DNA of 64,000 bases from contig NC_089433.1 in the NCBI RefSeq assembly GCF_026210795.1, positions 682,001-746,000 of the forward strand, given 5' to 3'. The notes below the pieces were generated by a model. The model made no database searches. It was not told the DNA's origin and saw nothing but the letters and a program-made list of their open reading frames with translations. The first letter of the stretch is position 1, and every line of letters begins with the position of its first letter. Of the stretch, positions 1-47,100 are shown piece by piece. Source of the stretch: Rhizophagus irregularis (lineage: Eukaryota). A program made the position numbers and the translations under genes.

Positions 1-15
1 AATCATCAATTCTTC

Positions 16-1099
16 TTAAACAAAAGATCTTTCAGGATGTTTGAGTATATAATCATCATTATTAATTAACCCAAAGGGGACTTCTTCCAACCAGTATAAG
101 ACCAGTTGATTTTTTTGCACCATAGATTGACGGATATGATAAATATGAGGTGACCAATTCAAATCACCAGTACGGTGTCTTCCACCCTTCAAATCACTAG
201 AATATAGTAAATATCGAACAAGAACATTACCAGAAAGCTTCTCTTCATCAAAGTCTATGATAGGGCCATCCTGAGGATAAGAAGGCTTAGCTAAGACCTC
301 TTCTTTCTCTATTGCATCAACAGGAGAAATACCAAGCTGGCATGTGATAGAATCATTAATATATTTGACAACAATAGGCAAATTTCTTACCCAAGTTCTA
401 GATATCTTATTCATGTGTAAAGTTAAAAGGTTAGAGGCATTCTGAGATCGAAACAGATTTTTAGTTAAGTCTCCATTAAATTTTTCAGTAATACCTATAG
501 TATTTTTAGATTTGGCCTTTTGAATTTTTACATTATACTCTCTCATTAATTTCTCACAATTGCCTCTAAACTCTGGACCCTTATCAGTTAAAAATGTTTC
601 TGGCCAAACAAAAGGATACTCAGGATCATTATAGATTTTCTCAAGAGCTCTAGCAATAGTCTTTAAAGTTAAGATTCCCTGCCTATCTTTAACACTATAT
701 GTACCAATAGGAATAGATACTTTATATTTTGAAGTCACATCCACCACATTAAGACAAAAAAGATAGGTAATCTGACCTACTTTATCATAAGGCATGTAGA
801 AAACATCTGCCTGATGAACTTTATTAGGAGTGGTAATAGAGCAAAAACTTGCTTGAGGAATATATTTAGGACGAGGCTTATATATCTGATATACAGCCTG
901 TCTTTCAAGCCAATCTTTCACTTCATCTAGAGTAAAATCATACCCATCTTTAAGAGATACTTCAAACAATTTTTTCGCATTTCTTTGGTAGCCAATAGGC
1001 TGGTAATAAATCTTCTGCAAAGCAATAAAAAAAATCAGGTTTTCGAGCTTCATCTGAATCTATCTGAATAATAGGAATCAATGGGGGTTAAGTAGGCAT
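16..1099 (-). CDS. Retroviral-type (rve) DDE integrase of Maverick/Polinton c-integrase type, probably degenerate
   Basis: ORF 16-1053 has HQADVFYM (D1), FLTDKGPEF (D2) and GITEKFN (E), plus the N-terminal 'VKDWLERQAVYQIYKP' typical of Polinton integrases. The probable original ATG at 1099-1097 (MPT*PPLIPIIQIDSDEARKPDFFIALQK) needs one stop and one indel. Confidence 0.85.
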
Positions 1100-2305
1100 A
1101 TATTGATTTACTAGACAGCAATTTAGAATTGCGAATAAAGTTGACTAAAGAGGAACCTATTACCATTAGAAATAAGGAAAAGATTCGCAAGCTCACAAAT
1201 GATCTAGAGTGATGTGAGCTATATATCAAATATCTTGAAAAAAATCTTATTTCACAAGAGGATGAGATAGATAAATTAAAAGTAGAATACTACTCCATCT
1301 TACATAATCTCAAAAAATGTCAGAATAATTTAAAGCTAAAGGAAGAGGCATTAGTCGCTCAAGATAACCGAATCATTCTGCTAGAAGGTACAGTAAAAAA
1401 GCTCAAAAGCCAAATTCTCAAGATATCACATTTTCAAAATAACAGTAATAAACTTTCTGAAGAAGACGAACAAGAAAATATGGCACTGCAAGATATTTTA
1501 AGGAATGTTGGTACAGCTCTAGATCAGGTTGAAAATTATATTGATGGAGTGGATACAACATTTAATCCAAAAAATACTCTAAATGGAATACGGATCTCAT
1601 TAACAACTGTTCGTGATCATATGCAAAGGTATGCTCAAGATGCTATTAACTTACAAGGTTTACTCTATATAGCTAATGGGCAGATCAATAATCTTATGAA
1701 TGACTTAACAAATACTAGGAATGATGTATTTCAAAGAACTCAGTTGTTAAATTTAACATATAATAATGAGGCAAATGAACATCATCGTTGGTATCTGACT
1801 TGGCTGAATTCAATCGGGTATGGGTATTTAATCGATATCAAAAATGGAAGGCTAGGGAATTAAATTCGCGACAAATTATCTTAAATTTACAAAACAATCT
1901 TCTAGCAAACAAGGCGAATATGGCAGATGTAAACCAACTTTTAGGCCTACAATTGGCCTCCCTTCCATTTTATGATGGACAAAAAGAGCCAGATTCATAT
2001 TATGCTAAACTTAGAACTATAAACGAATCAGCCTGATCTTTAGCAGTTGCAGGATTTAATGTGGCTGCCAGAACTAATGTCATGAAAGGAAAAATGACTG
2101 AAAGATTTCATCCTGTTCCAGCTAATGATCCATACACAGCAGGAAATCTAGCTATTAATACAGAACCTCTCTTTCTGGTATAGCTACAGGGAAGATATAG
2201 AGAGATAATGGTTGGAACTAATCGGGATGCACTAAGGGTTTTATGAATGAAAAATTTACTGTAATGGATACGGCAGATACTTATGAGAAAAGGGTTAAAC
2301 CATAT

Positions 2306-2549
2306 CACTGGTCAAAAACCAATATATCGGGTAACAGATATGTATCAGATATGTACCCGATATGTGTAGTATTAATGCTAAAAATTGGGTACCCGATATG
2401 TATATGATATGTAAATGATATGTAGACGATATATATATTTATACATATCTTACACATATCGGGTACCCGATTTTTAGCATTAATACTACACATATCGGGT
2501 ACATATCTGATACATATCTGCTACCTGATATATTGGGTTTTGACTAGTG
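2306..2549. mobile_element. CACTA/EnSpm-type non-autonomous element (MITE)
   Basis: Termini CACTGGTCAAAA...TTTTGACTAGTG with long inverted arms and a 3-bp TSD TAT (2303-2305 / 2550-2552). Removal restores the frame EKRVKPYVQG. Confidence 0.9.
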
Positions 2550-2848
2550 TATGTTCAAGGAATTTCTTATGCGGATGCTATAGAATATCTTTATGGATAT
2601 ATGCTTCAATATATAGAAATAAGACTTAGGCAAGCCAATCCGGCTAATTTGGATGTTTTCTTTACAGATTTGTGAAGAATTTGGTTGAAAAGTAGGGGGC
2701 AAATTGCAGAACAGCAACCTTTTCTCAGCTAGACTTTACCTATTATTCAATCACCAAAAGATGATTTTAAAATTCGGCTAGCAAGGGATTTGGCATATTC
2801 AGGAATAGTAACAGATGATGCAACATTAGAAAATTTTATCTATGAAGA

Positions 2849-3238
2849 TAGAGATCCTGGGCAAAACTGAAATATTTAGTCATTTGACTAAACCGAAATA
2901 GTTTAGACATTTAAAATTAAAAAACGAAATGCCGAAATTTAATATTTCATAGTATTTCCATAGATTTTTTATAGATTTCCATAGATTTTTAATTATAATA
3001 ATTACTTATAAAAAAAAAATAATAAATTTATATTAAAATATAATATTTTTTAAAGGAATTTATAAAACTATTTTATGTATAATATAATTTAATATATTTT
3101 TATAATAAAATTATAATTTTATATAAATAAAATTTAAACTTAAAAAATATTACTATATAGTTTAGTCAATGACGAAACTGAAACTAGTTGGTGACGAAAC
3201 CGAAATTTTGGCAAAAAGAGTTTAACTAGGTATTACTA
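2849..3238. mobile_element. hAT-like MITE
   Basis: TAG...CTA termini, subterminal CGAAA repeats and an 8-bp TSD TATGAAGA/TATAAAGA (1 mismatch). Removal restores ENFIYEELQKRL. Confidence 0.75.
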
Positions 3239-3611
3239 TATAAAGAACTTCAAAAGAGGTTAAGAGGCAAAACAGCTCATGTTAAAAAGAGTCCCTTTAC
3301 ATCTAGAAGTACCTATGCCATAAAGAAGATTGTTAGAAAGATAGTACCAAGCAAAGCGCCTATCGGCAAAGTATCAAGTAAACTTGTCTGACATTGCTCA
3401 GCATGCAGAAAGGCTGGTCATATAAAGGTTAATTGTCCTAAAGGTAAGCGGACTAAAAAAGTTAATTATGTATATCAAGATGAGGTAGAAGATCCTGAAG
3501 CCTCTGAAGAAGAATACATAGTGGAAAGCGAAGTTGATTCTGAAGAAGAGGAAATCGAAAATGATGATGTCAAATATGTTGAAGAAGATGATAGTGAATC
3601 TAGAAACTGTT

Positions 3612-4953
3612 ATGCATCAAAAAAAAGCGGTGCGAAGTGAAGTACCTATGAAAAAGAAGTCCTCTACTTCCAAATCTCATGCTGAAAGTGCTAAAACAAA
3701 GAGGGCATCAGGCAATATAACAATGGCCACAGAACAAATGAAAAAAATAGCCTTAAAATCTATGGTATCATCAGTAGTCCTACATTGTCCTAAAAAGATT
3801 CTTGTAGAAATTGCAAAATTTCTTAATATGATATATTCCAAATTAAAAGGCCATTACTTAAATACTGTTATGCCAAATGATACCATTAAAAGAAGGGAGT
3901 TAGCATGGGAGAATGTTAATAGCTATATTCAAGATATTTTATTACCACTATTACAGGCAGTAAATACTGAGCAAAAGCCTCTTTTACAAGTCCTAGATGA
4001 TAAAGAATCAATCCACAACTTAAATGAAGAGAACCTGGCAGATTCTACTAAAATAGCCATTAGCCATTCAAACACTTCGCAGACGCTTCGCAAGAAAATT
4101 AATATTACATACTCTAGCCAGTCAGAGAATCCCTCTGACTTAGTCTGATTAGACTATGCTATTAAGGTCTATGCTCAGCATCATTCAGCAGAAAAAAAAA
4201 AGTGACATGCAAAGCGTCTCACAGCTGATTCCTATATATTGGCCTAAACCATTAGAGATAAATTTTCTCCAAATAAAGAATGCTGACGATGTTGCAACTA
4301 TTTATTGTAAGATAGGAAGTTTAGAAATACCTTGTGCAATGATTGATACAGGATCAGATTCTTCTATATTTTCAGATAATATTGCAGAATTAGTTGAAGA
4401 GCTTTTGGGTATCAAAATTAATAGGATAAAGATCTACAGTCAACTCTTATTATAACGAACCCTAGGTTCCAGACCTCAACTTTACTATAGGACTATAGTG
4501 AAGATTTTAAGAGATTTGATTAGTTAATTCGTTATAGCAAGGGGAAATTTATTATAGTTGTCTAAAAAATTCACTATATCAAAGGTTCGCTATATCAAGG
4601 TTTGACTGTATACGCTTAATGGAGTTGTAAGCAAATCTCTATTCATTGGTACTATGGAGGATATTCCTATAACAATTGGTTCAGGAGAAAATACAACCAC
4701 TATTACAGATGAATTTTCTGTTGTGCCTGCGGAAAAGAATTAGAATGGAAATGCTAAATCTTTAGTAATTCTTGGGACACAATGGCAATATTGAGCTGGA
4801 TAGGAGCCTTTAATAAAAGGAGAATTTAAGGCTACATGTAACGGAAAGACTATCACAATCCCCCTATCAGTTCACAAATCCCAGCGTAATGTCTTCACTG
4901 TAGGAAAGGAGCCAGAAGAATGGTTTCCTGTAAAGCCAAAAAAAACTAGATGA
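3612..4953 (+). pseudogene. Post-Gag region ending in a retropepsin-like aspartic protease
   Basis: AMIDTGSDSSIFS (DTG at 4345-4353), flap-like 'IYTLNGVVSKS' after MITE removal and 'VILGTQW' at ~4765-4785. Internal stops are present and no RT motif follows. Confidence 0.8.
4437..4608. mobile_element. Tc1/mariner (pogo-like) MITE
   Basis: TIR CAGTCAA...TTGACTG with a TA TSD on both sides. Removal restores KIYTLNG. Confidence 0.88.
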
Positions 4954-8598: not shown

Positions 8599-9940
8599 TC
8601 AAGGTGATAGGTTATCTAAATATGCACTTAGTGGACCTTCATGTCGTTGATTCAAGAAAAAAAGTCCTCCTCCACTCCAGTGGACATAAGTAAATTGGTC
8701 CAGTACATCATTCCCGATGAGGGAAGAATCCACCTAGTCACCGGCCTTTCATTCCCACACCCAAAGCGTATTGGTCTGGACCCATCTGCTCCAATTATTA
8801 TCATCCCCAATAGATACTTGAAATGGGTCTGTAGCTAAAAACAAGTTAGCAGGTACTCCATATCCAGGCGCAACTACCGCTTGTCTTTCCCATCCTGTTC
8901 CTAGGTATGAACGGACTTCGTAGGGTAGTATTGTCTCTGGAGCACCTGTGTCAATAACTGTCTTGTAAAGTTTATTCCGATTTTTTGTATCATTAAATCG
9001 ATAAGCAAGAGTAATAAAATTTGTATTTTCGTCTCCAACTCTTTTGACTCGAACTTGAATCTTTATTAATATTATTCTTTATTAACAAAAAACTAAATAG
9101 CAAAGCAAATTATATAGATCAAAAAAAAAGTGTGAGTTTAAATGTATCAAACCATATATTCTCCCCCACCAGCAGAACGTTGGGAAAGTACTGCTCTCGC
9201 TGCGGGAATTTTAGGATTAAGAAATTCTCCACGAAGTAATGAATCTACTGGGAGATAAAGGGCACCAGGCATTTCACGATCAAGATCTGACCGTTGCTTA
9301 TTTGACTTCTTTTCTCCATATTCAACCACACTCTGCTTGTACACCAGCACCCAATCCTGTTTATGTTCATCAAACATTCCATTATCAAGACTATTATAAA
9401 AATAAATGCAATTTAGCGCGTATTCTTGATCATCTTCGGTTACATCGTTATCAGTGAAAACCCAGAAGACTTGATCTCTGGTGTTTTGGGGCATAGAAGT
9501 AGGCCATCTGAAATCATTTCCCATACGATCTATAAAGATGTTAGTTAATTAGACAATAGAATAATATAATATACAAAATTTTGGTCGTACCTAAAAATCT
9601 CTGTGCCTCATCAGTATCTTTTTCATACGCACGAAGGGAATCCACAGTTTTGGGTGGAGTTTCAAGAATGAAGGGAGTCTAATTCCTCGATGATTTGAGC
9701 TGAAGTATCTTTAGCTGTGGCCACAATATTTTGTTTCGTATTAGTTGAAGTACCTTCAGCATTTCCTTCGACATTAACAGCTTCGACATTAACAGTCTCG
9801 CTTGCTGGGGTAATAATAGTAGACTCACCTTTAGCTGTAATTAGCAGAATATTCAGTACAATATGATTGAAAGTTCTACATTAAACCTTGCAAAAAACCG
9901 AACCTTTCTTTCTAGAAAATATTCTTTTGAATTTTTTCAT
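8599..9940 (-). pseudogene. Spliced gene: DUF5678-like domain fused to a retropepsin-like aspartic protease
   Basis: Four exons with GT-AG introns (~9903-9835, ~9590-9530, ~9151-9061). Exon 3 has 'FDEHKQDWVLVYKQSVVEYG'; exon 4 has 'TVIDTGAPETILP' and 'SSLIGNDVLDQF'. There are two in-frame stops (TGA, TAG) and one frameshift. Confidence 0.75.
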
Positions 9941-13827: not shown

Positions 13828-16499
13828 ATGAATGTAAATGAACGAGCTTATACTGACGCTACTGACAGTACTGGCGATACTGATGAATCATCAAACTTAT
13901 TAGCAGCTGCAGGTATCTTTGCTATGAAATATGTTGTTTTGAATTCATGTTAGTATTAGAGTTAGGATTAGGGTTAGGGTTAGGGTTAGGGTCTGGTTAG
14001 GATTAGGGTTAGGGTCTGGTTAGAGGGTTAGGGTCTGGTTAGGGTTAGGGTTAGGATTAGTTAGGGTTAGGGTTTGGGTTAGAGAGGGTTACAGTTTAGT
14101 GTTAAGATTTCGTCATATTTACTAAAATTTTTATTGTTTATTTTGCGATTATATAATAGGTATTGATAGATTACTATTGCTTAATGAAAATAGTGATTCA
14201 GCTTTGTTTTCAGGAAAGAAATTTACTTCGTGGGATGAATGTGAAATGTTTTTAAATGAATGGGCAAAACAACAAGGCTTTCATTTAATAAAAGATCGTG
14301 TCACTCGTGATGATGGTGTTATTCGTCGAAGAACATTTATCTGCTCTCATGGACGTACTTATGAATCAAATTCATCAAGAAATACTGCTACAAAGAAATT
14401 AAATTGTCCCTTTTCCATTAATGTTTCATGTCCAAAAAACAAAAATCCCGAAGGTCTGATGTCTATAAATAAAATCAATGAAGATCATAATCATCCATTA
14501 AATAGGTCAATTATTGAATTTGAGGAATCAAAGAAATTTACTATGGAAATGATTGAAGACATTAAGTTTATGACCATTCACTGCAAGTTTGGTGCTACAT
14601 CTCAACGAAAGTTTCTTGAAGGGAAATTTCCTTCACACCCTATATTTTCGAAGGATCTTTATGCTACTATTAAAAAGTTTCGCCCAAATAGCAAATCTTT
14701 GTCAAATGATGCTGCTCAAATTTCTAATTGGCTTGATAATGAAAAAGAAAAAGATTCTCGATGGGTTGTGGTTCGGGGATGGGACGATGATAATACATTA
14801 ACATATTTATTCTGGATGACTCCAGTTCAAGTAGAAAATTGGGTATGTTATTCTGATTGTGTCATAAATGATATTACTCATAAGACAAACAGATACGGCA
14901 TGGCCTTATCATTAGTTGTTGGTTTTAATAATGATAGACGTAATGTTTTACTTGCGCAAGCTCTTCTACTAGATGAAAGTTTCGAATCTCATGTTTGGAT
15001 GTTTACCCAATTAACGAAATCAACTGGTATGCAGCCAATTGTTATAATAACTGATTCTGATTCAGCTGTTGATGCAGCTATTCGACAAACCCTTCCATCA
15101 AGTTATCCTATTCACTGTGCATACCATATTACACAAAATTTACATAAAAATCTCAGAAAATTGCTAGGCAATGATTATCAAGCATTCCTAACAGCATTCT
15201 ATAGTTGTAGAAATTGTATTGTGGAAAATGTTTTTGAGCAATGGTTCAACAACCTTTTACAAAATTATCCTAATGCTAAAACATATCTGGAATTTATTTA
15301 TAAAACAAAAATGTATTGGGCTCATTGTTATACTAAATTCAAGTTTACAGGAGGAATGATAGCCAGTTCTAGAGTTGAATCTGTAAATGGCTGTTTAAAA
15401 CGATTATTGCACAATTCCAACATACCATTATGCGATCTTGTAGCTGAAATTCAAAGACTACTTGATTTGCAAGACAAGGAAAATGAATATAATTTCTGGC
15501 GTTTATCGATTCCTACCATATGACATCAGAAAAATTCAAACTTTTTATTTTCTAAAATCGATCAAATTCTTCAACATTATCTTACTCCTACAATGTTAAA
15601 AATGCATCGTGATGAGATGAACCAATCGCTATATTATGTAGCAATGCTGGTTGAACGAAATTGTGAAGTAATGGAAGAAGAATTATTAACTAAAAATTCT
15701 GATGAAGCATCAGAAATTGATCTTCCACAGGCTACTTTAAAACAAATAATAAGTTATGTTGGTCTAAATAATGTTAAAGAAATTTGGGCTGTCAGTGTTG
15801 GTAATTCGTCAAAAGATCAAGCATTACATTTTATTATTACAAAATTGGGGATATATTTGTTCTTGTCTTTCAATTGTACAGAGTGGTATTATATGCAGAC
15901 ATTATTTTCAAGTGATGTTAACTACAAAAGAAGCAGTTTTTCATATTAGATTTATTCCAACGCGATGGTATAATGAAGACAGAAATGCTGTACAAGAATT
16001 ATTTATAACTGCTGATAAGTTTTTACAAGACAATCAAAAGATTGAATATAATACCGACGAATTTGTATCAAGTTTATGTTTATTTGATCAAAACAATAAT
16101 GATTATTGTGAGGAAAGATTAACAGTTCTTGAACAAAGAATTGTTTATGGTAAATTACATGGTGTATATAAGAAAGCCTTAAATAAGGCTTTACAAACAA
16201 CTTCTAAATCGGAACAGCTTATCAGTTTACTACAAGAATTTGCGGATGATAAAAATGATGATGATGAAACGGACTCTGAAGAATTTTATCAATATGATGA
16301 CACAAGTGACAAGGAGAATTTCGATCCATCAATACCATTGTTACAGAATCCAAAGAAACGGCGTGGAAAAGGAAGACCATTGGGTACGAAAAGGTTTAAG
16401 TCATCATGTGAAATATCTAGTTCTAAAACAAAAACACAACGTCGATGTAAAAAATGTGGGAAAGTTGGGCATTATCAAAAGAATTGCAAAGAACAATGA
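13828..16499 (+). pseudogene. FAR1/MULE (Mutator) transposase with SWIM finger, AT-hook-like motif and CCHC knuckle
   Basis: Exon 1 is 13828-13912 and the phase-1 intron is 13913-14159. It has a FAR1-like N-terminus, 'INDITHKTNRYGMAL', 'IITDSD', 'HCAYHI', 'SRVESVN', SWIM 'CSC...GIICRH', 'GRP' and 'CKKCGKVGHYQKNC'. One TGA lies at 15521 and one frameshift near 15815. Confidence 0.92.
13955..14100 (+). repeat. Interstitial telomeric (TTAGGG)n-like array inside the transposase intron
   Basis: Runs of TTAGGG with variants TCTGGT/TTAGGA. Confidence 0.92.
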
Positions 16500-20198: not shown

Positions 20199-20649
20199 CT
20201 AATTATCTTTGCTTAGTACTTCCAGCACCCTTTCAGCAGAAGGGTATACGATAACATTAATTCCCTTTTCACCACCAAAGATACATTGGGGTTGTATAGG
20301 AAAATGAGTAAAAATTGTGTCTTGCAATTCCATTCTTATTGCACTTTACTCAACTTTTCGCTGATTTATTTAAGCTGTTGATTATGACACTATCAGCTAT
20401 AAATGTGACCCTATATAAAGCCAAATTGGTCGAATCTATATCTTGAAATCGATCTAGACAATAAGTTCTGATTGCCTTCACGAGAGAAGAGACTTTATTA
20501 TTGTTAGCGTTAGATATCGTTACTTCAAAAATATCATTTACTCCCTCATCAGAAATGAGACAGTTGAGAGTAATATCCCCACCAGCGAGAAACTTGTCAA
20601 GCTTGTCAGGAGTCTTAGTCTTATCAGATTCCTTGGTTTTATTAGACAT
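20199..20649 (-). pseudogene. Stand-alone Crinkler N-terminal (ubiquitin-like) domain
   Basis: 'ITLNCLI...DIFEVTI...VSSLVKAI...FQDIDSTNLALYRV', then after a frameshift 'IFTHFP...GINVIV', matching the CRN header pattern. Confidence 0.65.
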
Positions 20650-20699
20650 CTTGCTTTCCTAAATACAAGGCCCATGGTGAGAAAAAACTTGCTTGGTCT

Positions 20700-22560: not shown

Positions 22561-24833
22561 TATATCTGAAAAAATAAACTGAATATTTATCATTCCAGAA
22601 AAAAAAATCTAATAATTATGTAAACTCTGTGACTTGACTAATCCAATTCGCTCACAATTCTAGCTTATTGCTGGTAGCTGGATATGTGAGACATACATTC
22701 ATTTTGATATTTCTCTGGAAGCTTGACCCTTATAGCTCTTTTTTCAGCCTCTTCATGGGATATACTATCTTTGACCATATTTTTATAAGCTCGAATGCAC
22801 CAATGATTATATGGTAAAGTGGTAATCCCATCAGATAAGATTCAGCACTTAGTATCTATGGGGCAAGGGCCTTCTTCTCAGATTCGACCAGAGATAATAT
22901 GTGATCCTTTGATCAGATGCCTACATCCTTGGCATAAAATACTTTCTTATCAAAGAGACAGTCCCAATATACTAATGACATAGGATCTGCCTCAGATTGC
23001 ATAGCCAAGTCCCTAGTCTCTCGTTCCGATAATAATGACTTATCTATCGAATTATCTAGCAAGGAGCCTTCTAGGGTTGGCATATATGAATCTGTAGCCA
23101 TCTCGCTCATACTCTTTTTGCTAACCCCTTATGCTTAGACTTCGTGGTCTTATCTATCAAGACATAGTAGTAAGATTTAGCTCGAATATGATAGGATTCT
23201 GTGATTACATTACCAGGAGTTTCATCCTTAAATTTTCTAACTGTTTGATCTCCATTAAGATTAAAGAGATCTGGTCGTTCAGCCATATCTTTATAGATAT
23301 CTTCTGTTTCAGTTTCGAAGATGTAGAAGTCTGTATCCATATATCTAAGCTTGGCCTTGTCCCCATATTTTTCCTTTATATATCTATATCAGAATTCATA
23401 CATGTGAAGCTTGCTAAGACCCAATACAGATGTTCCAACTTCCAACTATGATAGACTTGTTAAGGGTTACGCTGGCCTTTTCCATATGTGCTCCTATAAA
23501 TGTATTTCCAAGTTGCCTAGCATATTTGAATGAGGGCTTGCAGACCTTTTTCAAAAAAGCTTTTTTATCTCGCTCATTATTTTTCTTCATAATCTTGACA
23601 TCCTGGTACTTGCGAACATTCTCCATAGTCTTGCTATATACTGATATATTCATAAGTTTGAAAAAGTCACTCAGGAATGTATTTCCAGCTTTTTTAGCCT
23701 TATTACGTTTTTCAGTATTAAAAGTTATATATGGTTCAAGCCAGTTAGTCTGGTTGAAGGAGAGTATCTCTGAAACTTCATTCACAACCATACCTAATTT
23801 TACATAATATTGGAGCTATTGGTAATGGATGACATAGTTCTTTTGTGGTCCAAGATGGAGGACTAATTTTTCTGTGGCAGAGAAGCATCCACTATCTAAT
23901 TGTTCTACAAGTTTAGCATTATATGGACATAACTAATCTTTTTCTACAGCGACATTCTTCACGGCTGGAGGTAAGTCTTTTAAATATTCATGAGTCTTTA
24001 GAGAGAAATGAGTATTAATATTTAAGAAATACCCTCGTTTAGCATCAAATCGTGTATTAAGAATCTTTTCAAGATATTTCTTCTGCATAGCTGGATTTTT
24101 TAGTAAATATTTCCGACTAGCTTCCCATTGATAATTTCCGATAGGCAAATATTGGCCCATAGAATGTCCATAAAGATTTGTTACATCTACATATGAGATC
24201 CAGGATGTGGGTTTGGATGGGTCATAGGCTTATCCCATCTTGGGATTATTAGCCTTAAAATATCGTTGATAGGCCATAGATATACCATCACATTTAGCTT
24301 TTTCGGTAAAATCATGCATGGCCATATCTGTGAAAAGCTCTATCCTAACTCCTGTCATCTTAAACATTCCATCCCAGGATAGTGATGAGGCAGAAACATA
24401 GTAACTGGGATTAAGTTCATAATATTCTATAGACATTTTTCAAAACTCTGTCCAGACATCTGTTAGACTAAGTACGTCAATTTTAAGATAGAGATCATGG
24501 TACTCACCTAGATTCTTACAACCAAAAGTTTTCCATGCTTTCTGGGCATGGTGGTAGTCTTCTTGCGAGATCTTTCCTTTTAGGGTTGTAGTAAATTCAT
24601 GAATTGGTGGGAGCTTAGTCTTCAAGAATCTATCCTGAGGATCGATATAATCATAACAATATATTCCCTTGCGATATCTTAATGCTAATTGCTCCTCTGT
24701 ATAACCTAATTTTTTGAAATATTGGCTTATTATCAGATGGTTATCACCCAAATTTTTCGTAAGACTGGCCAAGCTACTATTCATGAATTACTGGCTATCA
24801 ATATACTTGAGCTGGCCTACCTTCATAGACTTA

Positions 24834-25522
24834 CACTCCCGCGCAATAAGTTTAGGACCACCTTATTTTTGTTTATATAAATAATGTTTTATTCTTATTT
24901 ATATAAGTTTTTTTTTAAAAAAAATTCTTTACATTGTAATTTCTTGAATAAATATAAAAAATTATCATATTGATCTTTATAAATCATATAATACAAGGTT
25001 TTTTTCTCAATGACAAATTTTTAACTTTTCAACCAGAGTGATTACAACAAAAATAAGTACAAAATTTAAATAGTTAGGTAAACATAAGATTATATTTCAA
25101 ATTTCGTAAAGATCGAATCAGTAGTTATTGAGAAATTAACAATTAAGAATCGACAATTTATATATTTGACCTAATAAATAAATGATTTTCATATATAAAT
25201 TGTCGATCTTTAATTATTAATTTCTCGATAACTACTGACTCAATTTTCATGAAATTTGGAATATAATTTTATTGTTAGCTAAACTATTAGAATTTTGTAT
25301 TCATTTTACTGTAACTGCTTTAGTTAAAGAGTTAAAATTTTACTATTAAAAAAAAACTTTATTTTACATGATTTATAAATGCAAATATGGTAATTTTTTA
25401 TGTTTATTCAAAAAATTATAACACAAATTTTTTTTTTAAAAAAAATAAATTATATAAATAAGAATAAAACTTTATTAATATAAACAAAAATAAGGTGGTC
25501 CTAAACTTATTGCGCGGGAGTG
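24834..25522. mobile_element. Tc1-like non-autonomous fold-back element
   Basis: Perfect outer TIR CACTCCCGCGCAATAAGTTTAGGACCACCTTATTTTTGTTTATAT, with arms continuing imperfectly inward and a TA TSD. Removal restores KRYKSMKVGQLKYIDS. Confidence 0.95.
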
Positions 25523-27414
25523 TATACCGCTTAAATGTTTTAGCTATAACCCTGATATGTTTTGCATTAGCTGAGCGTCCAACAGATTCACAGACCAAGT
25601 GAGAGTCATAGCCCCAGAAGTTATGGAAGATAACTGGGATTGGGGTCTTCCAATCCTGTATCTGGAATTTGAGATTGCAATCCCTATGAGCTGATTCACG
25701 AAACTTGCCTGTGATATGGCAGTGATCCCAAACCTTATTAGCCTTAGCTTTTTTGCTGGAAATTGCCTTGGTTGTTTTATCAATAGTTGATTGGATACCA
25801 TTATATTCCGCTGATTTTTTATCAAATTTTTCTAGCTTTTCTTTAAGATAAGTTATTTTGGATTCTAAGCGCTTGATTTCATCTATATCTATATCGAATT
25901 TACCTTTGCAAATCCAACAGCTAATAGGCATCGGCAAATTTTTTCTTGTCTTTCTCAATTACTTTTCACTCATATTTAACAGTTAAGACTTCATTAATGT
26001 GAACTAGCTCTTGATCAATCCTTTAGACGAATTCTTATGTGGCATTTTCTCCCCAATATAAGAACGGACTCCATACATCTCCAGTATCAATCCAGTGGAC
26101 TAAGTAGCAGAAACTATTAGTCTTCTGTTCAGTAAGTTTTCGCATGCTTCCACCATATTTTCATCACATTTCTTATTATTAGCCTTGAAGTCCACTATAA
26201 TAACACAAGAAGCATTGATCATCTGGCCATAGTTCTTGAAGTCCTCAAAATCATTTACCCCTTTCACGAGCATTGTAACTCTCTGTAGGGCATTTTCATG
26301 TATTCCTGGACACTATTCTATATGTTGGTCTAAAGATTATTCAGAAGGAAAACTTTGGAAGTATCCATCACATAGATGTTTCTTTTCTTTATGCGCACTA
26401 TCCCTATATATTAATCTACTGGGATTCTTGATCCAGAGAAAGTGGTTCTTTTGTCTGTATTTATCTTTATCTTCAGATTTGATAATATCTGTAAGAGCTA
26501 ATAACCGAATTTTATACTTTCTTTTAAAGTTTTTACTAGCTATCACGAGTTTTGGAGTAGCTGTTTTTTCATTCCACCCCAAACATTGATGGAGATATTT
26601 GGATTCATCTCCTCTATTTTATTAAATATGCGTGAGCAGATTGGAGTAGACATTGGGGTACTATCTAGCTTGACTACATCTAAGTATGGCTTGAGTTTCT
26701 TTGCTCAGAATATTTGTTTAAGATGTTTTGTATCAGGCCGATCTTAATGAGTAAAATACAATCCCAATGCATCTTGAAGATATTTTTCTGAGGGTTTTTT
26801 TGTTTCTAGATCAATAAGATCTTTATTATCTGGATTGATAGTGGACTTTATATTGGCGAGCCTTTTGGAAGTAGAGATGAATGAACCTCCTGTACCATGA
26901 CATAAAGTATATGTCTCAATACTTATAGAATTAATACGTTTAAGAATAAAACCTGATTTATGTATCAAATAGTCTGAAATCTTTTTATCAATATGACTAA
27001 TAGATATGGCTAAATGTTCATCAATATCCTTTTCAGAAAGAAGTACGTCTATTTTTCCTCTATGATATCTATCAAGATATTTAGCTTCATAAATTGCTTT
27101 ATCTGCAGAATTACCTTTTCCATTATATTTGTATTTTACATATATAGCATTTATGACCAATACTGTTTTTATTTGATTTTTTCTGCAAAGCTCTTCTTGT
27201 AAAACACCTGTAATTGTCTTATTTGATACTCCTATAAGTTGAGGTATATAAGGGACATCTGCGTATTTTGTTTGTTTGGCCTGCTGTTTATTGAATGCAT
27301 ATTTGGGATTATTGCTAGATGGTACTTTTCTCACCCATTTAGTCATTGAAGAGCGATTTCTATGTGGTCTTTCTAGATCTTTCCCAACTGGACATTCTTC
27401 AAAGTGTATATCCT

Positions 27415-28828
27415 CCCTATGAAAAAAGTCTGTGTGATTTTTGTTGAAAAATCATTCAATTAAATTCACTACAATTTCTGTATATTTGACCATACAATAA
27501 TTGTGCTAAAAATTGCAATAAATCACACAATTATTGCATGGTAATTCATTCAATAATTATCCTATTTTTGACCTGAATTTATACAATTATTGTGTGATTT
27601 TTGAGCCAAATTTTAGGCCATATTTTAGGAATTATAGGTTAAATTTTACAGTAATAACAGGCAATTTATAAAGTAAAATTATGAATTTTTATTGACTTAA
27701 AATATAAAAAATATACACAATATTTCATAAATAAAATACTAAATTTGATATAATCATAAATATAAAAATTTGTAAGAAAATAAAATAAAATAAAGTATGT
27801 TAGCTTAGTAACATGAAAGTAAATTAGTAGTATCAAAGAAGAAAGTAAATTATTAGTGTAAGTAAATTATTAGTATTAAATAAAAAAGTATGAAGTTAGT
27901 GAAGAAAGCAAATTAGTAATGTTAAAAAGTAAATTATTAGTGTTAGTAATAAAAAAGTATGAAGTTAGTGAAGAAAGCAAATTAGTAATGTTAAAAAGTA
28001 AATTATTAGTGTTAGTAATAAAAAAAAAGTATGAAGTTAGTGAAGAAAGCAAGTTAGTAACATTAAAATGTAAAAAGTTAGGAAAATAAAAAGATAAAGA
28101 ACACAAGTTTTCTTACCTGACATTTTAAAAGAAAGCTGAAGAAAAGTTAAAAGGTTAAAAAACATAAACAAAAACATTTCGCGTCATCATATTTATTTTG
28201 ACGATCAGATCACGTGATCAACATATATAATTTTAAGAGTTGATTTTTACCGCTTAATTCTGGCCAAATTATAATTCCAGTCAGAACTAATTGTGTAACT
28301 TAATAAAAAGTTTTGACTTTTTTTAGTTACAAGGTGATATAAAAATTTCACCAATGGGTCCGGAAGATGCCCGTTTATAAGCAAATATGCAGTTGAATTT
28401 TGTGTAACCTTACTGCATAAATCACTTTACTTAGAAAAATCTATTTGTAATGGTTAAAAGTGGTCTATTTGACCCTAAAAGTGGTCAAATGTAACCATAC
28501 AGGTAAGATGGAAAGTAGTATAGTAGGATTACCCAAAAATTGCTTTCCGTATCCTAAATTTAAGTCTATTTTCAAGTTGTACAATAATCACAATTTTTAT
28601 TGTACAAAAATTGAATGTTTTCTGTATCCTAAATTTAAGTTGTATAAAGATCACACAAAAATTGAACATTTTCTATATCCTAAATTTAAGTTGTACAAAA
28701 ATTGCATACTTTTAATATGCTTTGAAAAACTTCATAGCTATTTTTATCCAAAAATCTGCAATAATTGTACAATTTCCACACAGACTTGAACAAATATTGT
28801 ACAAAAATTCGATGATTTTTTTTCATAG
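27415..28828. mobile_element. CMC/EnSpm-like non-autonomous element
   Basis: CCCTATGAAAAAA...TTTTTTCATAG (right end lacks the terminal GG), 3-bp TSD CCT and internal tandem repeats. Removal restores the polB frame IKVKDIHFEE...SSMTKW. Confidence 0.82.
27840..28065. repeat. ~60-bp tandem repeat, about 3 copies
   Basis: AAAAAAGTATGAAGTTAGTGAAGAAAGCAAATTAGTAATGTTAAAAAGTAAATTATTAGTGTTAGTAAT repeated. Confidence 0.85.
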
Positions 28829-37163: not shown

Positions 37164-38797
37164 ATGTCAAAAATTATTGAAGAATTTAATATTACTAAAT
37201 GTCAAAGACTTTCTCAATTGAATGAGAAAATAATTAAGCAATACGAGTACGTAATATTTATTTTAATATATCTTGAGGTTTTTTTGAGACCTGATATTGA
37301 TTTAATTCACTTATCAATTTAGAACACAAACTGGAGCAAGGATTATTCTTAATACCGGGCAAATTACAACTTTGACAATCTCCGGAAATTCATCTGAATT
37401 TAAAAAAGCCAAAATTTTGATAAGAGATTTCCTTGAAAAAAATTCTTTTATTCCAAAAGTTTATTATCTTATTTTGGACAGATCAATTTTGAAAAATAAT
37501 GACAAACTTAAATTTGTTAAATTCCATGAGGAAACTATAGAAATTAACGATGATGTCGGTGATGGTGGTGATAATTCTTTGGAAGATTCAGACAGAAAAG
37601 CCCATTATTTCGTTGAATTTCTACAACAAAATAATGAGACCGACGATGATGATGATTCGAGCAAACCTGAAGAATTCCTAAATTTAATTTCTCCATGTCA
37701 TTTTAATACTTTCAACAAAATTGAAGATTGTTTGGAAAGATTATATTTAAAGATAAAAACAACAATTAAAAGAAGTTATGCATTTCCCGACCAAATCGTC
37801 TTTAAACCTAATATATACCTTGGCAAAGCCTTATTTTCTGATGTTATTAATCCTGAGGATACTTTTGTTTTAAAAGAATGGTATATGTTTAATATCTTAT
37901 CAGAACATGGTAGTCGTGAAAGTATTGATGATTATACTTTTGATGGTGAATTTTACAATAATAATACCGTTAATACTGCATTTCATCAAGGCTCACTTCA
38001 AATTAAAGAAAATTTCAAAATACTTGAACAAAAATTTGATTTCAAATTGGACAGTGAACAAGTTGCCCAAGACAAAAACAAAGGAAAAATAAGCATTTTT
38101 TATTCTCCTGGAGAATTCAAGAGGAGAAAGATAACATTGCGATGGAGCGAACGAGAAAATAAATGGAAAGTTACTGTTAACGCACATGGTCTTAATCGTT
38201 TAGGTGAGTGATTTTACTAACTAAAATTAAAATGTATTTTTTATTTTTTTTTTCTTTTTTAACAAATTTTTATTAGCGCATATTGATATTCTCTCTGGAT
38301 CAAAGGAGCCTGATATTAGACTCTCGCTTAAAACTTTTTATAATCTTCCTTCTGAGGGCTCAGAGATTGAAGAGACGGTTGATAAAGTTCAGTCTCAAAT
38401 TTTTTACGAAAGAGATGGAATGTGGTTTAAATCAAATGATTTTATCGATACTATAATTAAACGGGCTGTTGTTCGACAAGTTATTGAAAAGAAACGTTAC
38501 AAGTAATAGATTCATTGTTTCTTCACAGTGATTAATTAATCTTTTCTTTTAAACAATTCTCATCTTTTAAATCTTTATTTTCACTTAAAATTATAAAGAA
38601 ATAAGGATTTTTTTATTACATTCTCAACGGTAAAACAGGACAATAGAGGTAAAATTACGATTCAAAATTTTATCAAGTTGAAACATCGTTTTTGGAAACA
38701 AAAGATTAGCAAGATTAGCTTAGATAACGTTGAAGATTTTATGAAGAGCGCTAGTGAAATTTTACATTATGCTCGAGAATTGATAAGTGCAATATAA
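37164..38797 (+). CDS. Paralogue A: degenerate KH-like N-terminus plus uncharacterised domain, 4 exons
   Basis: Three GT-AG introns at positions shared with B and C; spliced 'IIKQYETQTGARIIL...LTISGNSSEFKKAKILIRDFL'. Confidence 0.8.
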
Positions 38798-39386
38798 ATA
38801 ATTTATAGAAAATATTTTCTGTTTTTTTGTATAAATTTCTAATTTATGTAAATATTGTTTAAGCTAAAATCAAATAAATAAATTTTATTTCATCTAATCG
38901 AAATTATTTATCTGACAATGTATATCTCAGTTTGGAGCATAAAGTTTTTTAAGCTATTTTCCGTACTTTTTGGCAAATATTTGAACTATTACTTCGTGAT
39001 TATAAATGAGTTTAAAAACATATTAGGAATAATGTACAGTATTTGTGTGATTTGTGTGATTTAAAAAATTGTTGATTGTTCGTTCAGTTGATTGCCGATC
39101 GTTAATTATTGTCTACAAGATCTACATGCAATTGTCTACCAAATTTACCTATTACATACGATAAATAATAATATTTTGTGGCCGAAAGTCGAAATGAGAT
39201 TATAATAACACATAATTGCAACCATCGTGTAATACCCATGTATCACCGTGTACACAGCGGTCAGTCATATGATAGTTATTGTTTCGAAAAAAGGTAATTG
39301 ATTTTGATATAAATTACTTATTGGGAGTACTTACAGTCCTTCACCCCTTTACCATCGCTTTTGTTCATACAATCTTCGAAAGAAAA

Positions 39387-41023
39387 ATGTCGAATATCGA
39401 AAAATTTGATATTACTAGATGCCAGAGACTTTCTCAATTAAATGAGAAAATAATTAAGCAATACGAGTACGTAATATTTATTTTAATATATCTTGGGTTT
39501 TTTTTGAGACCTGATATTATTATATTTAATTCACTTATTAATTTTAGAACACAAACTGGAGCAAGGATTATTCTTAATACCGGGCAAATTACAACTTTGA
39601 CAATCTCCGGAAATTCATCTCAATTTATAAATGCCAAAGTTTTGATAAGAGATTTCCTTGAAAAAACCTCCTTTCTTCCAACACTTAGTTATTTTGTTTT
39701 GGCTGAACATGTTTCGAATAATAGAAAACTTAAATTTGAGAAATTCAATGAGAAAACTGTAGAAATTAATGGGGATGGTGGTGATGATGGTAATGATGGT
39801 AATGATGGTTATGATGATGATGATAATGATTCTTTAGATGGATCAGACATAAAATCTCGTTATTTCATTAAGTTTGATGAGACTGTCGTTAATTATGACG
39901 ATAATAAACCTGATGAATATATAAATCTTACTCCATATCAATTCAATACCATCAATAAAATTGGTGATTGTTTGGAAAGATTATTTTTAAAAATAAAAAC
40001 AACTATTAATAGGAGTCTTACATTCCACGACCAAATCATTTTTAAACCTAAAATATTCTTTGGTAAACTCTTATTTTTTGATTTTACTAATCCCGAAGAT
40101 CCTTTTGTTTTACAAGAATGGTATAGGTTTAATGTCTTATCAAAAAGAGGTCGTAGCGAAAGTGTTGCCGATTGTTCTTGTGATGATGGTGATCTTTATG
40201 GTTGTAGGACCGTTAATAATGAATTTCAACAAGGTTCGCCTCTAATTGAGGAAAATTTTAGAATATTTCAACAAAAATTTGGGTTTAAATTGGATGATGA
40301 ACAGGGTAAAAACAAGGGAAAAGTAAATATTACTTATGTTCCATCACCAACTAAGAAGAGAAAGATAACATTGCGTTGGAGTGAACAAGAAAATAAATGG
40401 AAAGTTGCTATCAATGCTCATGGTCTTAATCGTCTAGGTGAGTGATTTTACAATTTAAATTCTTTAAAAAAGAAAAAAATAAATTGTTTTTTTAACTTCC
40501 TTTTTTTTTATTATTAGCTAATATTGATATTGTCTCTGGATCAAAAACGCCTGACATAAGATTCTCACTTAAAACTTTTTATGGACTTCCTTCTGAAGGT
40601 TCAGAAATTGAGAAAACAGTGAATGTCGTACAATCTCAAATTTCTGCTGAAAGAGATGGCATGTGGTTTAAATCAAAAGATTTTAAAGGCACTGAAATTA
40701 AAAGAGCTGTAATTCGTCAAGTCATTAGAAAGAAATGCTACAAGTAATAAATTTATTGTTTTCTCACGGTGATCAATTAATCTTTTAAAAAATTCATATT
40801 AATTTAAATTTTTTTACTTTAAAATTGAAGGAATGAAAAATTTTCTATTACGTTTTCAACAGTAAAACAGGAAGAGAAAGGTAAATTCTTCATTCAAGAC
40901 TCTATCACTTTAGGACACAAATTTTGGGATCAAAAAATTAGCTTAGATAATGTTGAAGAATTTATGACGAGTATTTTTGAATCTTTGTTTTATGCTCGAG
41001 AAATGATGAATGTTTTTGTTTGA
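39387..41023 (+). CDS. Paralogue B of the same family, 4 exons
   Basis: Same exon structure and motifs; expanded GATGAT/GGT acidic linker. Confidence 0.8.
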
Positions 41024-41443
41024 TAAATATTTTTTATTTTCGCTTTAATCCTATTTTCACGAATCTTCTTAATTATTTAAGTTTATTGTCAAATAAATTA
41101 TTTTATTTTATTTTCTTTAAGAGATATTATTTAACTGGTCATAAAATTTTAGCCCCTCCTACTTTATAACTTTTTATTCTTTTTTTATATTTTAATAAAA
41201 TGTCGCAAGAGAATGCGAGAGAAGGTTGAAGATTTCACGAGTTAATCTCAATAATTATTACATAGTTAATTATTAAAAGTACTATGCTTGCCAACAAATA
41301 AATAACGTAAAACAGAAGGTTTATTCTTGCCATGATTGCCCCCAAATTTATACTAAGCGTGAAACTATTAAAGTAAAAACCCATAAATTAATAGATGGTT
41401 TTCGAATGTGGCTTTTTTTTATGTTACACTGCTGTCACTATTG

Positions 41444-42240
41444 TCATAGTTGCTTCTGTTGGAATTGTTGTTCTTGTTTCAGTTGAGCGTGCTTAAGTGA
41501 CTGTAACTTTGCTGTTATGATTTGATAATATTCAATTTTTGAACTTGCTTTATTATATATATCTTCTTCCATTTCTTTAAATCTTTGATTCACGTTGTAT
41601 TTTGTATTAAAAACTTCCAAGAGCACAAATAATCTTTTTACGTTAGCTTTACGTTCTATTTATTCATTTATGTAAAAGCAGGAGAGTAAACAATAAAAAA
41701 GTCCTATACATGTTAGCTTTACGTTCTTCGTATGACAATATAAGATGCCATGCTTGTTGCAAATTGCACGTGATTTTTATTGCGCATTGCGGTCGCGCAA
41801 TGCACGCACATATTTGGATTACATGCAATTTGCATAAATCAAGCGGACCGCGACCATGTAATTTGCATAAATCGAGCGGACCGCGACCATGTAATTTGCA
41901 TAAATCAAGAGGACCGCAAGATTTCAACAGCATCGGTCTGCTGATTTTGTTGCTGTTGTCGCCGTTGCTTTTGTTGTAGTTGCTGTTGCTGTATAGCGCG
42001 CATTTTTGCTACTAATGTTTGATTATATTCATATTTTGATTTAGCTCTCTTATGTGCATCATCTTCCCATTTCTTTGAAGCAGTAAACCTCTGATTCACG
42101 TTGAGGTTGATATTAAAAACTTCAAAGAGAACAAATAATCTTTTTACATTAGTTTTACGTTCTCCGTCTGACAATGTAAAACGCCAATTAGCTGAAGAAG
42201 AGGAAGCAGTATACATGTTTATTTGTTGATTTGTAGACAT
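41444..42240 (-). pseudogene. Gal11/Med15-like double KIX-domain, polyQ protein, interrupted by insertions
   Basis: Two repeats of 'WxxxLSxxERKxNVKRLFVL...NVNQRF...E.D...A.SK.EY....AK', each followed by a Q-rich tract. The first half (41905-42240) is an open ORF on its own. Confidence 0.6.
41751..41931. mobile_element. Small insertion with imperfect TIRs and 33-bp internal repeats
   Basis: TGCTTGTTGCAAATTGC versus the reverse-complemented right end GCTGTTGAAATCTTGC; about 3x AATTTGCATAAATC.AGCGGACCGCGACCATGT. Removal fuses the two KIX halves in frame (QQTD-WHLILSYEERK). Confidence 0.6.
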
Positions 42241-42692
42241 AATAAATTTTTATGAAGGGATTATTTGTTTGAGAATTATTTAGAGCGTAAGAAGAGAGTT
42301 ATAAATGTGAATGTTGTTATTTTGAGAGAAATAAAAAACAAATAACCCTTATTATATATTTTTTTCGTGTCATGGGAATTTACCTTATTTGGTAGTATAT
42401 ATCGCTGTTATCAGTTATCGTTCAGCCCAATAGGAAAAAGCAGATTTTCATAGACCGATATTAATGTTTTTTTATTTAATTTTTTTTTTTACATTGCATT
42501 GTGTGATATGCTGTAAACTTTATTTTAGGTTAGCAGTTAGCTGTGTGCCAAGTGTTATAGTATTATACACATTCGCAACGTCACAAGGTTAAATTTTTTT
42601 TTTAGGTAATATCATTTATCTTTCTAAGATGATGTCTCCAGACGCGTCGAACGCGTATCTTAATCGCAATCCAATCATTGTTGAGAATTATA

Positions 42693-42851
42693 CATGGGTT
42701 CAAGCCATGCGAAATATTACGCCACATTACACCAATTCGGCAATACCCCCGGTGTAATACTTGTGTAACACGATCGTAATACTCTTCGATGTAATATATT
42801 TCACCATTTTCACCATTATGCCGAATTATCTGAAATAATTATTCCTCCATG
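42693..42851. mobile_element. TA-flanked MITE, copy 1
   Basis: TA-CATGG...CCATG-TA; the body is similar to 47101-47280 (GAAATATTAC...CATTACACCAATTCGGCA...GGTGTAATAC...ATGCCGAATTATCTGAA). Confidence 0.65.
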
Positions 42852-44246
42852 TATATTTGAGAATATTACATTTTATTTCCCCTTGACGATATTTCTGACC
42901 AAGAAATGACGTTTTTCTGAAACGCATACCTCCTCCATCGAATGACGAACACAAATATATTTTTACATAATACCATACAGATTTATTTAATCACTTGGAA
43001 ACATGGTTATTAATGGATTTTATAAAGCCCGAAACATTTAGAAACATGACGAATGCTTTCTAGGTTTCACAGTTTTTAATAATGCAAAGGCCGGATATAT
43101 TGAAACGACGCGCCATTAAAATTCAAAAGTGTCAGTTACATGGTTATTATTTTTTTCTATTTGCTAACCCGGCAAGTTCTCGGCATTAGTTTTGCTAAAT
43201 GCCGGCAATTTATGAATTTGCTGTAATCTCTTTGTATAAAAAACAAAAAAAAACCGGATTTTTAATGATTTTGAATGGAAAGAATACGAAACGAAAGGAT
43301 TACCTAATAAATGCGTGAGAGTTTTCATATCTTATATTGTCAATTACTTGGCCTTTTACCAGTATAAAAATTTTTATTATGAGTCATCACAATTTATATA
43401 ATTTGTCATCTTCAAGTTCAGATGATAGAAATGTAAAAATGACAGCCAAATGTTAAAAGTTAATAATTCGATATAACGAATGCTGACGATCAATATTGAA
43501 ACTTAACCGAAAAGTTATTATGAAATCTAACCGAATTTTGTCTGATATATTAAGACGAATGACAGCGAATTGTAAAATAAAAATCAGCTTTCGTGTAATA
43601 ATCGTATTTTTTGATAAAACTTAACTATAGATGCACGTTTCTTTTTGTAATATGCGTCTATGATAGCGTATATTACCATAATGAAAGTGCATCTATGGCG
43701 ACGTAAGTAATAATTAATTATTTTTATTTTATTACAGAAATTAAAAAAAAACTTATTATTTTTTATTGTCCATGTGATTTTAAATTTCGAGGAAATGAAA
43801 ATTCGTTCATAAATCTCATGCAAATTTGTTCCAGAGTTATTCTGCCTGCGAAGCAACACTATATCATTCTTTCCTTGAAAATTATAACGTAATAATTTTA
43901 ATTGGGTAATCTGTTATTCAAATTATAATATATTTGTATTTCAAAAAGAATAAAAATTTCACACAATATACCTATATATAAACACTCACAACATGTGGAA
44001 AAGACCATAATATAATAAAAGAAATAGTCAAAGTCAAGGAGGAACTAGGAAGAGATAAAATGATCAGTTTATCAAATCATGTAATGATAACATCACGTTA
44101 TCGGCGATCGAATGACCGATGTGCCGCTGTACCACCATGTACATAATCCAATTTAATAAATTGATCGGTTAAAAATTATTTACTGAGAATTTATCCTTAC
44201 CATCGAAATTTCGTTTTGTTCATACGATCATCAAATGAAAAAAAAA

Positions 44247-45901: not shown

Positions 45902-47100
45902 TTAATTTATAGAAAATATTTTTTATTTTGCTTTTTATTTTCTTTGCTTTTATTGTATATTCATTTCTATGATCTTTTACTAATTTCTTTAAAATAATTA
46001 TAGATATTATTTAAGTTTGTAAAAAATCAAGTTAATTGATTTAATTTTATCCAAGAAATATATAACGCTTACTTTTAAAATTTATTCCTTCACCCTTTTT
46101 TTCCCTGCTGTAATAAAAAAAAAGGACGCTGGTTTGAAATGGAAAGAAAAAAGTGTTGGATAAGTTGGAATCGGCTTTTATATCGACTTTTAACATTTAA
46201 ATAAATATTTAGTCATGGTTGACTATTGAAGAAACAAACCCATAAATTAATAGATGATTTCTGAATATTTTTGTGTAGTATTTGTCATATTGCAGCAATA
46301 TTGGGAATATTGGAACTGAGAGAGGGAAACACACTCTTTATAAGAACACGAGACGATGGATTTTACATTTATTAATTTAAACAACTTGATCAGTCGTGAA
46401 AAAGCGTAGTCGATATTCACTTTAAGCATTCTCGCGTTAAGTTTTTTTATATTAATAGATTATTAAACAACTGGTTATTGTAATTTTAAAAGCCGATTGA
46501 TTCCGATTGATCGAATTATTTCAATTAAAAATTCACATTTTCAAGAATTCCTTCAAAGAATATGTTGATTATAACTTCAGTTATTATTTCTTCTAATCAC
46601 ATAACATTTCTTTAATATGTGGTATAAGATTTAGATCGATCTAATAAAGTTTTGGTCAGTACAGTTTGGGCAGTACAGTTTGGGCAGTTTTGGATTGTCC
46701 AAAAGTCTAATTTAAAAAACCAGTCCAAAATATAACGCATTGTGATACTTTAGCACTTATATTGTTTATACTAATTTAGCATTTAATTGTGTAGACACTA
46801 GACAGGTAATGATTTATGAAAATTTCCACAAAAGAATCGACCATTCACGTTTCCAAAAGAAAATGCTGATTAAAGAGGATATAAGACTGAAATATATTAT
46901 CTCATTTATGAACGACTGAGTTGTTTAAAACTCACGCGAAATTTAATTTAAAAAATCAGGAAAGAATAGTGTAATAATTTGTTACATTAAACACGAAGAA
47001 TAATACTTTATTAAACGTTATAATAATATAGTATAAAATAAGGTTTGTAGATCTTAGACCGAGGCCGTGACATAATTTCCTTTTTCGAGTCATAGCTATA

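Follow-up and report, generated by a model that had tools for sequence, protein, structure and literature searches.

A broken copy of a conserved integrase/Gag-protease junction in Rhizophagus irregularis and its probable Polinton-type context

The closest described systems are the Glomus intraradices Polintons P_Gi1.1 and P_Gi1.2. Table S1 of PMC4028283 lists for them no MCP, penton or cysteine protease, and an ATPase in one of the two, while a passage of PMC7805220 states that no capsid gene was found in Polintons of G. intraradices. Mavericks are expanded in Glomerales according to PMC11952901, which leaves Gag unmentioned in its sections on them, and excerpts of bioRxiv 10.64898/2026.06.19.733378 report A32 ATPases in Glomus and Rhizophagus. 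The legend of Figure 5 in Starrett et al. 2021 (PMC8502044) notes Gag and retropepsin similarities in a MELD-related element that carries PolB. A literature search retrieved no other description of a junction between Gag and integrase genes of the kind analysed here, although an earlier one is possible in Kapitonov and Jurka 2006, Koonin and Krupovic 2017, Pritham 2007 or Repbase; the relevant portions of PMC5751038, PMC11296320, 10.1101/697771, 10.1101/2021.03.30.436303 and 10.1101/2025.06.16.659975 hold nothing on it.

The locus studied lies in a stretch of 64,000 nucleotides of the R. irregularis genome, hereafter the window. Homologous loci, designated by L numbers, were taken from a metagenome integrase scan, of which the best 80 of 412 confirmed loci were used (48 low-GC and 32 higher-GC).

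The integrase/Gag junction and the decayed element of the window

The Gag and integrase genes were proposed in a preliminary description to start head-to-head with overlapping start regions. This 19-nt overlap is real. It is read directly from the sequence, with the Gag ATG at 1081-1083 (+) and the integrase ATG at 1099-1097 (-), and the annotated ATG at 1053 is found, as described, less than 30 bp from the Gag start (28 nt from 1081). The minus strand from 1099 reads MPT*PPLIPIIQIDSDEAR and intact homologues P0013, P0017 and P0041 open with MPxxxPLIPIIxIDSDEAR; because of this agreement 1099 is the homologous integrase start. The ATG at 1053 was rejected for this role since it is out of frame with the true N-terminus. 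The 345-aa ORF that opens there, identical to an R. irregularis database protein, does so only because of a frameshift. The plus strand from 1081 reads MGVK*AYIDLLDSNLELR, in agreement with L002 (MGVEQAYLDLIDSNLELR) and P0153. The window junction aligns gap-free with L002, L012 and L014 and its +18 offset (Gag ATG position minus integrase ATG position) recurs in 6 of 23 loci, so that the arrangement exceeds chance. Table 1 lists the features of the element.

Table 1. Features of the decayed element in the window (positions of the whole stretch)
Feature	Position	Strand	Evidence or remark
Polinton-type (c-) integrase gene, broken	16..1099	-	rve E 9.5e-07; alignment to homologues
Gag/integrase head-to-head start overlap, +18 type	1081..1099		19 nt; read from sequence, aligned to homologues
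Gag N-terminal coiled-coil-like region, stops at codons 5 and 44	1081..1881	+	translation, homologue alignment
Gag capsid (CA) region and next helical segment, split by frameshifts/insertion	1914..2849	+	CA profile E 1.6e-43, 1.1e-14, 2e-07
Palindromic insertion of 244 bp within CA region	2306..2549		arms 2306-2413 / 2442-2549, 94%
Gag C-terminus: CCHC zinc knuckle 3395-3436, acidic tail, A-run 3619-3626 at Gag/protease junction	3233..3664	+	
Helical linker and retropepsin-like aspartic protease, broken; DTG 4345-4353; insertion ~4441-4605	3620..4950	+	
Homologue of the small ORF between protease and PolB of L023	5884..6129	-	E 4.8e-11
Decayed PolB remains	22725..27385	-	homologue comparison, motifs

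Integrase and Gag are both broken in this copy. In the integrase, codon 4 is a stop, alignment shows the A-run 1027-1034 to be one base too long, and a further premature stop lies at 18-16; the catalytic residues D83, D157 and E191 (numbering of the 345-aa ORF) are intact. Gag carries several insertions and frameshifts besides its two early stops, and an AT-rich insertion (~2850-3230) precedes its C-terminal segment. More than half of the differences from L002 in the first 420 Gag bases (18 of 32) are C>T or G>A, the usual decay pattern. Other sequence (16.5 kb, including a MULE) separates the ORF at 6.1 kb from PolB. A 69-bp tandem array (27860-28074) follows PolB; the left end of the element lies outside the window, which covers the element only rightward from the integrase. 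Mapping of four raw-read runs gave no reads at ≥95% identity on window positions 1-2300 and none at the junction, and three RNA runs gave none on L002; these counts have no bearing on expression either way. A promoter scan of the window remained at background level and was discarded, its model being bacterial and not applicable here.

Other sequences were noticed in the window. ORF pieces at 8655-9548 (-) hold a second DTG aspartic-protease-like motif and have no Pfam match. Between protease and PolB there is a TTAGGG-like array and, after it, a MULE transposase that has FAR1 and zinc knuckle domains (13945-16499). A fragment of a Crinkler N-terminal domain is found at 20353-20658 (E 9.6e-09), and a long palindromic insertion lies within the decayed PolB (24832-25524). 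Further right are a host gene in three tandem diverged copies (~80%; 37175-45906) and an F-box-like gene (48848-50299).

Conservation of the divergent arrangement

The junction is not unique to the window copy. Among the best 80 of 412 confirmed loci, the sequence extends 200 nt or more upstream of the integrase in 35 of the 48 low-GC loci, and a divergent Gag N-terminus is found at the integrase start in 31 of these 35 (five of the 31, L033-L036 and L039, are assemblies of one element) versus none of the 29 higher-GC relatives tested. The Gag N-terminus profile, into which 3 of the 31 were built, separates the positives (≥30.9 bits) from the other four loci (≤5.8 bits). In 10 loci a CA domain of the window type was confirmed on the contig that carries the junction; most of the other contigs stop before reaching it. 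Neighbouring integrase and Gag accessions are also present in the named genomes of R. irregularis and R. clarus (e.g., GBB93333/GBB93332, GBB97312/GBB97313 and PKY60310/PKY60311), and named Gag relatives come in addition from Diversispora, Acaulospora and Glomus.

The spacing of the two starts is variable. The offset ranges from -37 to +24 in the 23 loci measured: besides the +18 type it is +1 in seven loci, where one CATG holds both ATGs, +12 in two and +24 in one, while in the remaining seven the starts are separated by gaps of 11-37 nt. Coding constraint at the junction is evident on both sides: across the first 80 codons of Gag, dN/dS is 0.13-0.30 in all 11 pairs, and across the first 100 codons of the integrase it is 0.12-0.37 in 10 of 11, the remaining pair being nearly identical.

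The four low-GC loci negative for Gag are diverse. L005, a close relative, retains a 12-codon Gag relic at +18, then an A32 ATPase, and its integrase frame is intact, which suggests that a packaging ATPase lies past the protease in some elements that also have Gag. In L042 (3-1694) a single sense frame joins protease, C2H2 finger and integrase; the locus sits on a long branch within the low-GC loci. At L021 a different divergent ORF is present and L022 has a truncated integrase start; both are without a recognisable Gag start. The segment upstream of the L005 integrase (L005:3-1554) contains, besides the ATPase, a coiled-coil ORF with a membrane segment predicted by eye.

Distances between Gag N-termini and between integrases are correlated (Spearman/Mantel rho 0.53, p 1e-4, n=24), a value that shows clustering only, as kin share labels. 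On the Gag side the +18 loci fall together and most +1 loci make up a second group, but the integrase tree mixes both: the start offset tracks the Gag subtype and integrases were swapped. The window itself provides an example. It resembles L002 through Gag and then, from the first integrase codons on, loci of the L001/L009/L027 kind, its integrase being 83-85% identical to those of loci whose Gag N-terminus is only 33-37% identical. The Gag-protease module (Gag-PR) is thus native and old, with partners exchanged by recombination near the junction.

No direct repeats flank the module in the window, and no LTR-like repeats were found in eight long loci (partial contigs), three of which have short tandem duplications. 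None of 106 window frame fragments of at least 48 aa from the flanking element parts matched an RT-related Pfam family. In the long loci no RT family follows the protease, its place being taken in L023, L033, L036 and L039 by converging ORFs or PolB; among the 49 members of the Gag alignment, two show a weak RT_RNaseH match (best E 0.033). These results bear on the origin of the junction by chance, through LTR insertion or inversion in one decayed retrotransposon. The heavy decay and nested insertions of the window copy speak for such an event, but it is hardly credible given the lack of RT-related matches and is refuted by the conservation of the junction across copies and species, in frames that are intact and under purifying selection. 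The preliminary claim that Gag-PR is a native neighbour of this integrase and no random LTR insertion thus holds, on account of the occurrence in low-GC and not in higher-GC loci, the dN/dS values and the lack of LTR-like repeats in the eight long loci; its companion claim of co-evolution stands in a loose sense only, and the overlap is not fixed.

Integrase, DNA polymerase and the Gag-protease module

Intact integrase homologues are 365-380 aa long and have the DDE triad. In LTR retrotransposons the integrase is encoded in the same sense within pol and has an HHCC zinc domain. Here rve is the only family recognised in 37 of 37 aligned members, and the HHCC motif was found in none of them. The best 150 integrase profile matches among 1.84 billion proteins are all short and stand-alone (≤446 aa); no long integrase fusion was found among 5817 candidates, a result of slight weight. 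Trees of integrases, quick and midpoint rooted, with Ty3/gypsy and Ginger references left out, place the Gag-linked group beside loci bearing PolB, capsid and ATPase genes. A single branch splits Gag-linked integrases from all capsid-plus-ATPase loci, with support of 100 (77 rows) and 96 (79 rows: 32 chosen loci and 47 representatives of at least 300 aa), and in the wider tree the two groups are joined at a branch of 95.

A protein-primed PolB accompanies the stand-alone rve integrase, as in Polintons; it is decayed in the window and intact in L033 (1334 codons), where it converges on the integrase in the order PR<-Gag<- INT-> <-PolB. In L023 the order is PolB, small ORF, protease, Gag, integrase, which is that of the window. 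Among the best 80 of 412 loci, PolB lies directly beside the integrase or next to the module in eight low-GC Gag-bearing loci that represent about five distinct elements. Three family B polymerase motifs are present in 10 of 10 aligned relatives, and DNA_pol_B_2 was matched in 2 of 10 (E 9.4e-17). Single-sequence Pfam, PHROG and PDB searches with the L033 polymerase gave no match.

The higher-GC relatives, whose integrases are 34-37% identical, have the same integrase/PolB tail-to-tail cassette together with a capsid-like gene and an A32 ATPase. The nearest characterised relatives are predicted to carry a jelly-roll-like capsid and a packaging ATPase instead of Gag; L068 was labelled as carrying a capsid because of a weak Capsid_N match (E 0.0096) and its neighbouring A32 ATPase. 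A capsid profile built from 10 higher-GC loci matched neither the window nor the low-GC contigs, which are partial and total 146 kb, and the A32 ATPase is absent from the window and present in one of the 48 low-GC loci (L005) among the best 80 of 412. A slot-for-slot replacement of capsid by Gag was considered and is unsupported, since among 10 relatives with a capsid only 2 have the capsid-like gene head-to-head with the integrase.

The gene that diverges from the integrase in higher-GC relatives is capsid-like in L068 and L075 and VLTF3-like in L073, with a homologue of the latter in L074. In many low-GC loci (L001-L030) a conserved ORF of 130-150 aa converges on the integrase stop; its position would fall left of base 1 in the window. 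Among the partial contigs there is no complete element with terminal repeats. Scans of viral contigs with integrase, Gag, ATPase and the L033 PolB returned no relative, a phage collection gave no match, and L081, a virophage-like contig from one PolB scan, proved unrelated.

Taken as a non-autonomous retroelement that uses RT in trans and often lies in or beside Polintons, Gag-PR and integrase would supply three retroelement functions (Gag, protease and integrase), and L042 would show two of them in one sense frame. We regard this reading as improbable. The integrase is antisense to Gag and lacks HHCC, its closest kin belong to elements bearing PolB and capsid, PolB recurs beside integrase or module and LTR-like repeats are missing from the long loci. 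An element of Polinton lineage with a native Gag-PR module is, in our assessment, very probable.

The intact Gag of L010 has 691 aa. A model of its residues 310-600 (49-row alignment, mean pLDDT 78) retrieved retro CA or CA-derived structures in all of the first 31 VIA rows, including the PEG10 CTD (Z 10.5, rmsd 2.5, 82 aligned), Copia (Z 9.5, rmsd 2.3, 81 aligned) and MLV CA (Z 7.5, rmsd 4.3, 163 aligned across both lobes); for a helical domain a Z of ~10 is of middling strength. The best Foldseek matches for this model stayed above E 0.001 (0.07 in PDB and 0.002 in a viral library), with the same proteins ranked first. The intact Gag homologue is predicted to fold as a two-lobed retro capsid. 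ESM features assign Gag to Retrotrans_gag (0.94), while Pfam recognised no Gag capsid family in the window-type CA. PDB sequence searches with integrase, Gag, PolB and the capsid-like ORF were uninformative.

A CCHC knuckle, with an acidic tail next to it, is present in the four loci checked and in the window. The protease follows in the -1 frame after a run of 9-10 A in L006, L010, L023 and L039; other assemblies of the L039 element have the +1 frame or a fusion at the A-run instead, and no strong downstream structure was predicted at this site. The protease matches Asp_protease_2, gag-asp_proteas and RVP_2 in Pfam (E 2e-04 to 3e-03). Full Gag, knuckle, A-run and catalytic protease occur together in at least four distinct elements. 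A second CA type (L033:2086-2949, also in L044) has the same architecture, a weak Retrotrans_gag match (E 0.006), being nearer to the canonical form of that family than the window type is, and a distribution limited to one integrase subgroup; because it shows no detectable similarity to the window-type CA, two captures or a deep split are both possible. Beyond the protease and an F-box-like ORF, L039:378-1190 and L036:864-1676 encode an ORF with two repeats resembling TATA-binding protein. The model of the TBP-like ORF of L039 has low confidence (pLDDT 36), and its three TBP rows (Z ~5) are tied with unrelated folds.

Possible role of the module and comparison with known systems

The explanation that we prefer, and hold to be the probable one, is that the window carries a broken copy of a conserved Polinton/Maverick-type integrase/Gag-protease junction in which Gag-PR is a capsid module replacing the double jelly-roll. 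The module was likely captured long ago from an LTR retroelement. It is probably the particle-forming unit of the element and likely the substitute capsid of this fungal element family. Gag and integrase would be transcribed outward from promoters lying within each other's 5′ coding sequence. In the overlap types both mRNAs would necessarily be complementary across at least the overlap, which could couple or limit expression. Slippage at the A-run would provide low levels of the protease, which would mature Gag. The Gag shell might then enclose the linear DNA copied by PolB together with the integrase, and could move the element from one nucleus to another within the multinucleate hypha or through hyphal fusions.

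This last step is the most tentative. Retro capsids are RNA-packaging shells and the CCHC knuckle is a binder of single-stranded nucleic acid; packaging of DNA would thus have no clear precedent. That DNA is the cargo of the Gag shell is possible, though less likely than not. We are likewise tentative about the full picture of a chimeric virus-like element in Glomeromycota, a Polinton-type linear DNA copied by PolB within a Gag shell, without reverse transcription and with the jelly-roll exchanged. Gag-PR could instead be a fixed passenger that packages no DNA, either as an RNP shell for element mRNAs or as a dominant-negative inhibitor of LTR retrotransposons, in a Polinton that is capsid-less and self-synthesising. 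Wherever they have been characterised, zinc knuckles and CA shells are RNA-binding, which would suit a passenger, as would the state of L005, which appears to have lost Gag yet retains its integrase frame. Capsid-less Polintons are also known, as noted in a passage of PMC4028283. A restriction factor, however, needs only a CA fragment, whereas the complete set from Gag to catalytic protease is kept in several elements, and the module accompanies integrases only ~40-50% identical to each other. A passenger role is therefore rather unlikely.

Under the replacement of the jelly-roll by Gag-PR, the conserved module is a concrete candidate answer to the missing Maverick capsid in Glomerales. Should DNA prove to lie inside the shell, a replicon that passes from DNA to DNA would be served by a retro capsid, and two otherwise separate virus realms would be linked; such a shell would be a route for the element between nuclei of multinucleate symbionts. 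In these genomes, matches to Gag, protease and integrase can be misfiled as Gypsy elements.

P_Gi1.1 and P_Gi1.2 resemble this family by their protein-primed PolB, stand-alone rve integrase, host species and lack of a listed jelly-roll capsid, with an A32 ATPase in one of them as in L005; a Gag-CCHC-protease module beside the integrase is unmentioned in the parts of PMC4028283 and PMC7805220 that concern them. The MELD-related element of Starrett et al. probably belongs to this family, and the gene set Gag-retropepsin-PolB was probably already glimpsed in their legend. The corresponding text of PMC8502044 names no host for it and does not cover junction, conservation, fold, frameshift or capsid replacement. 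In Ginger DNA transposons a gypsy-like integrase stands alone between short TIRs, against which the multi-gene context with PolB argues here.

Ty3/gypsy (Metaviridae) and other LTR retroelements share with this Gag-PR the succession of coiled coil, CA and CCHC knuckle, the CA fold (predicted for L010) and an aspartic protease downstream of Gag past a frameshift; the protease matches Ty3-type families weakly in Pfam, as the CA of L033 does Retrotrans_gag. They differ from this family, in which no RT/RNase H was found after the protease, no long terminal repeats were detected, a DNA polymerase accompanies the module, and the integrase, stand-alone and without HHCC, is antisense to Gag instead of in the same sense within pol (with the exception of L042). 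In bidnaviruses, as summarised in a passage of PMC11161782, a Polinton PolB occurs together with an unrelated capsid that replaces the double jelly-roll, which makes them a precedent. Theirs is a parvoviral capsid with a single-stranded DNA genome and no integrase, while the candidate capsid of the family described here would come from a reverse-transcribing element.
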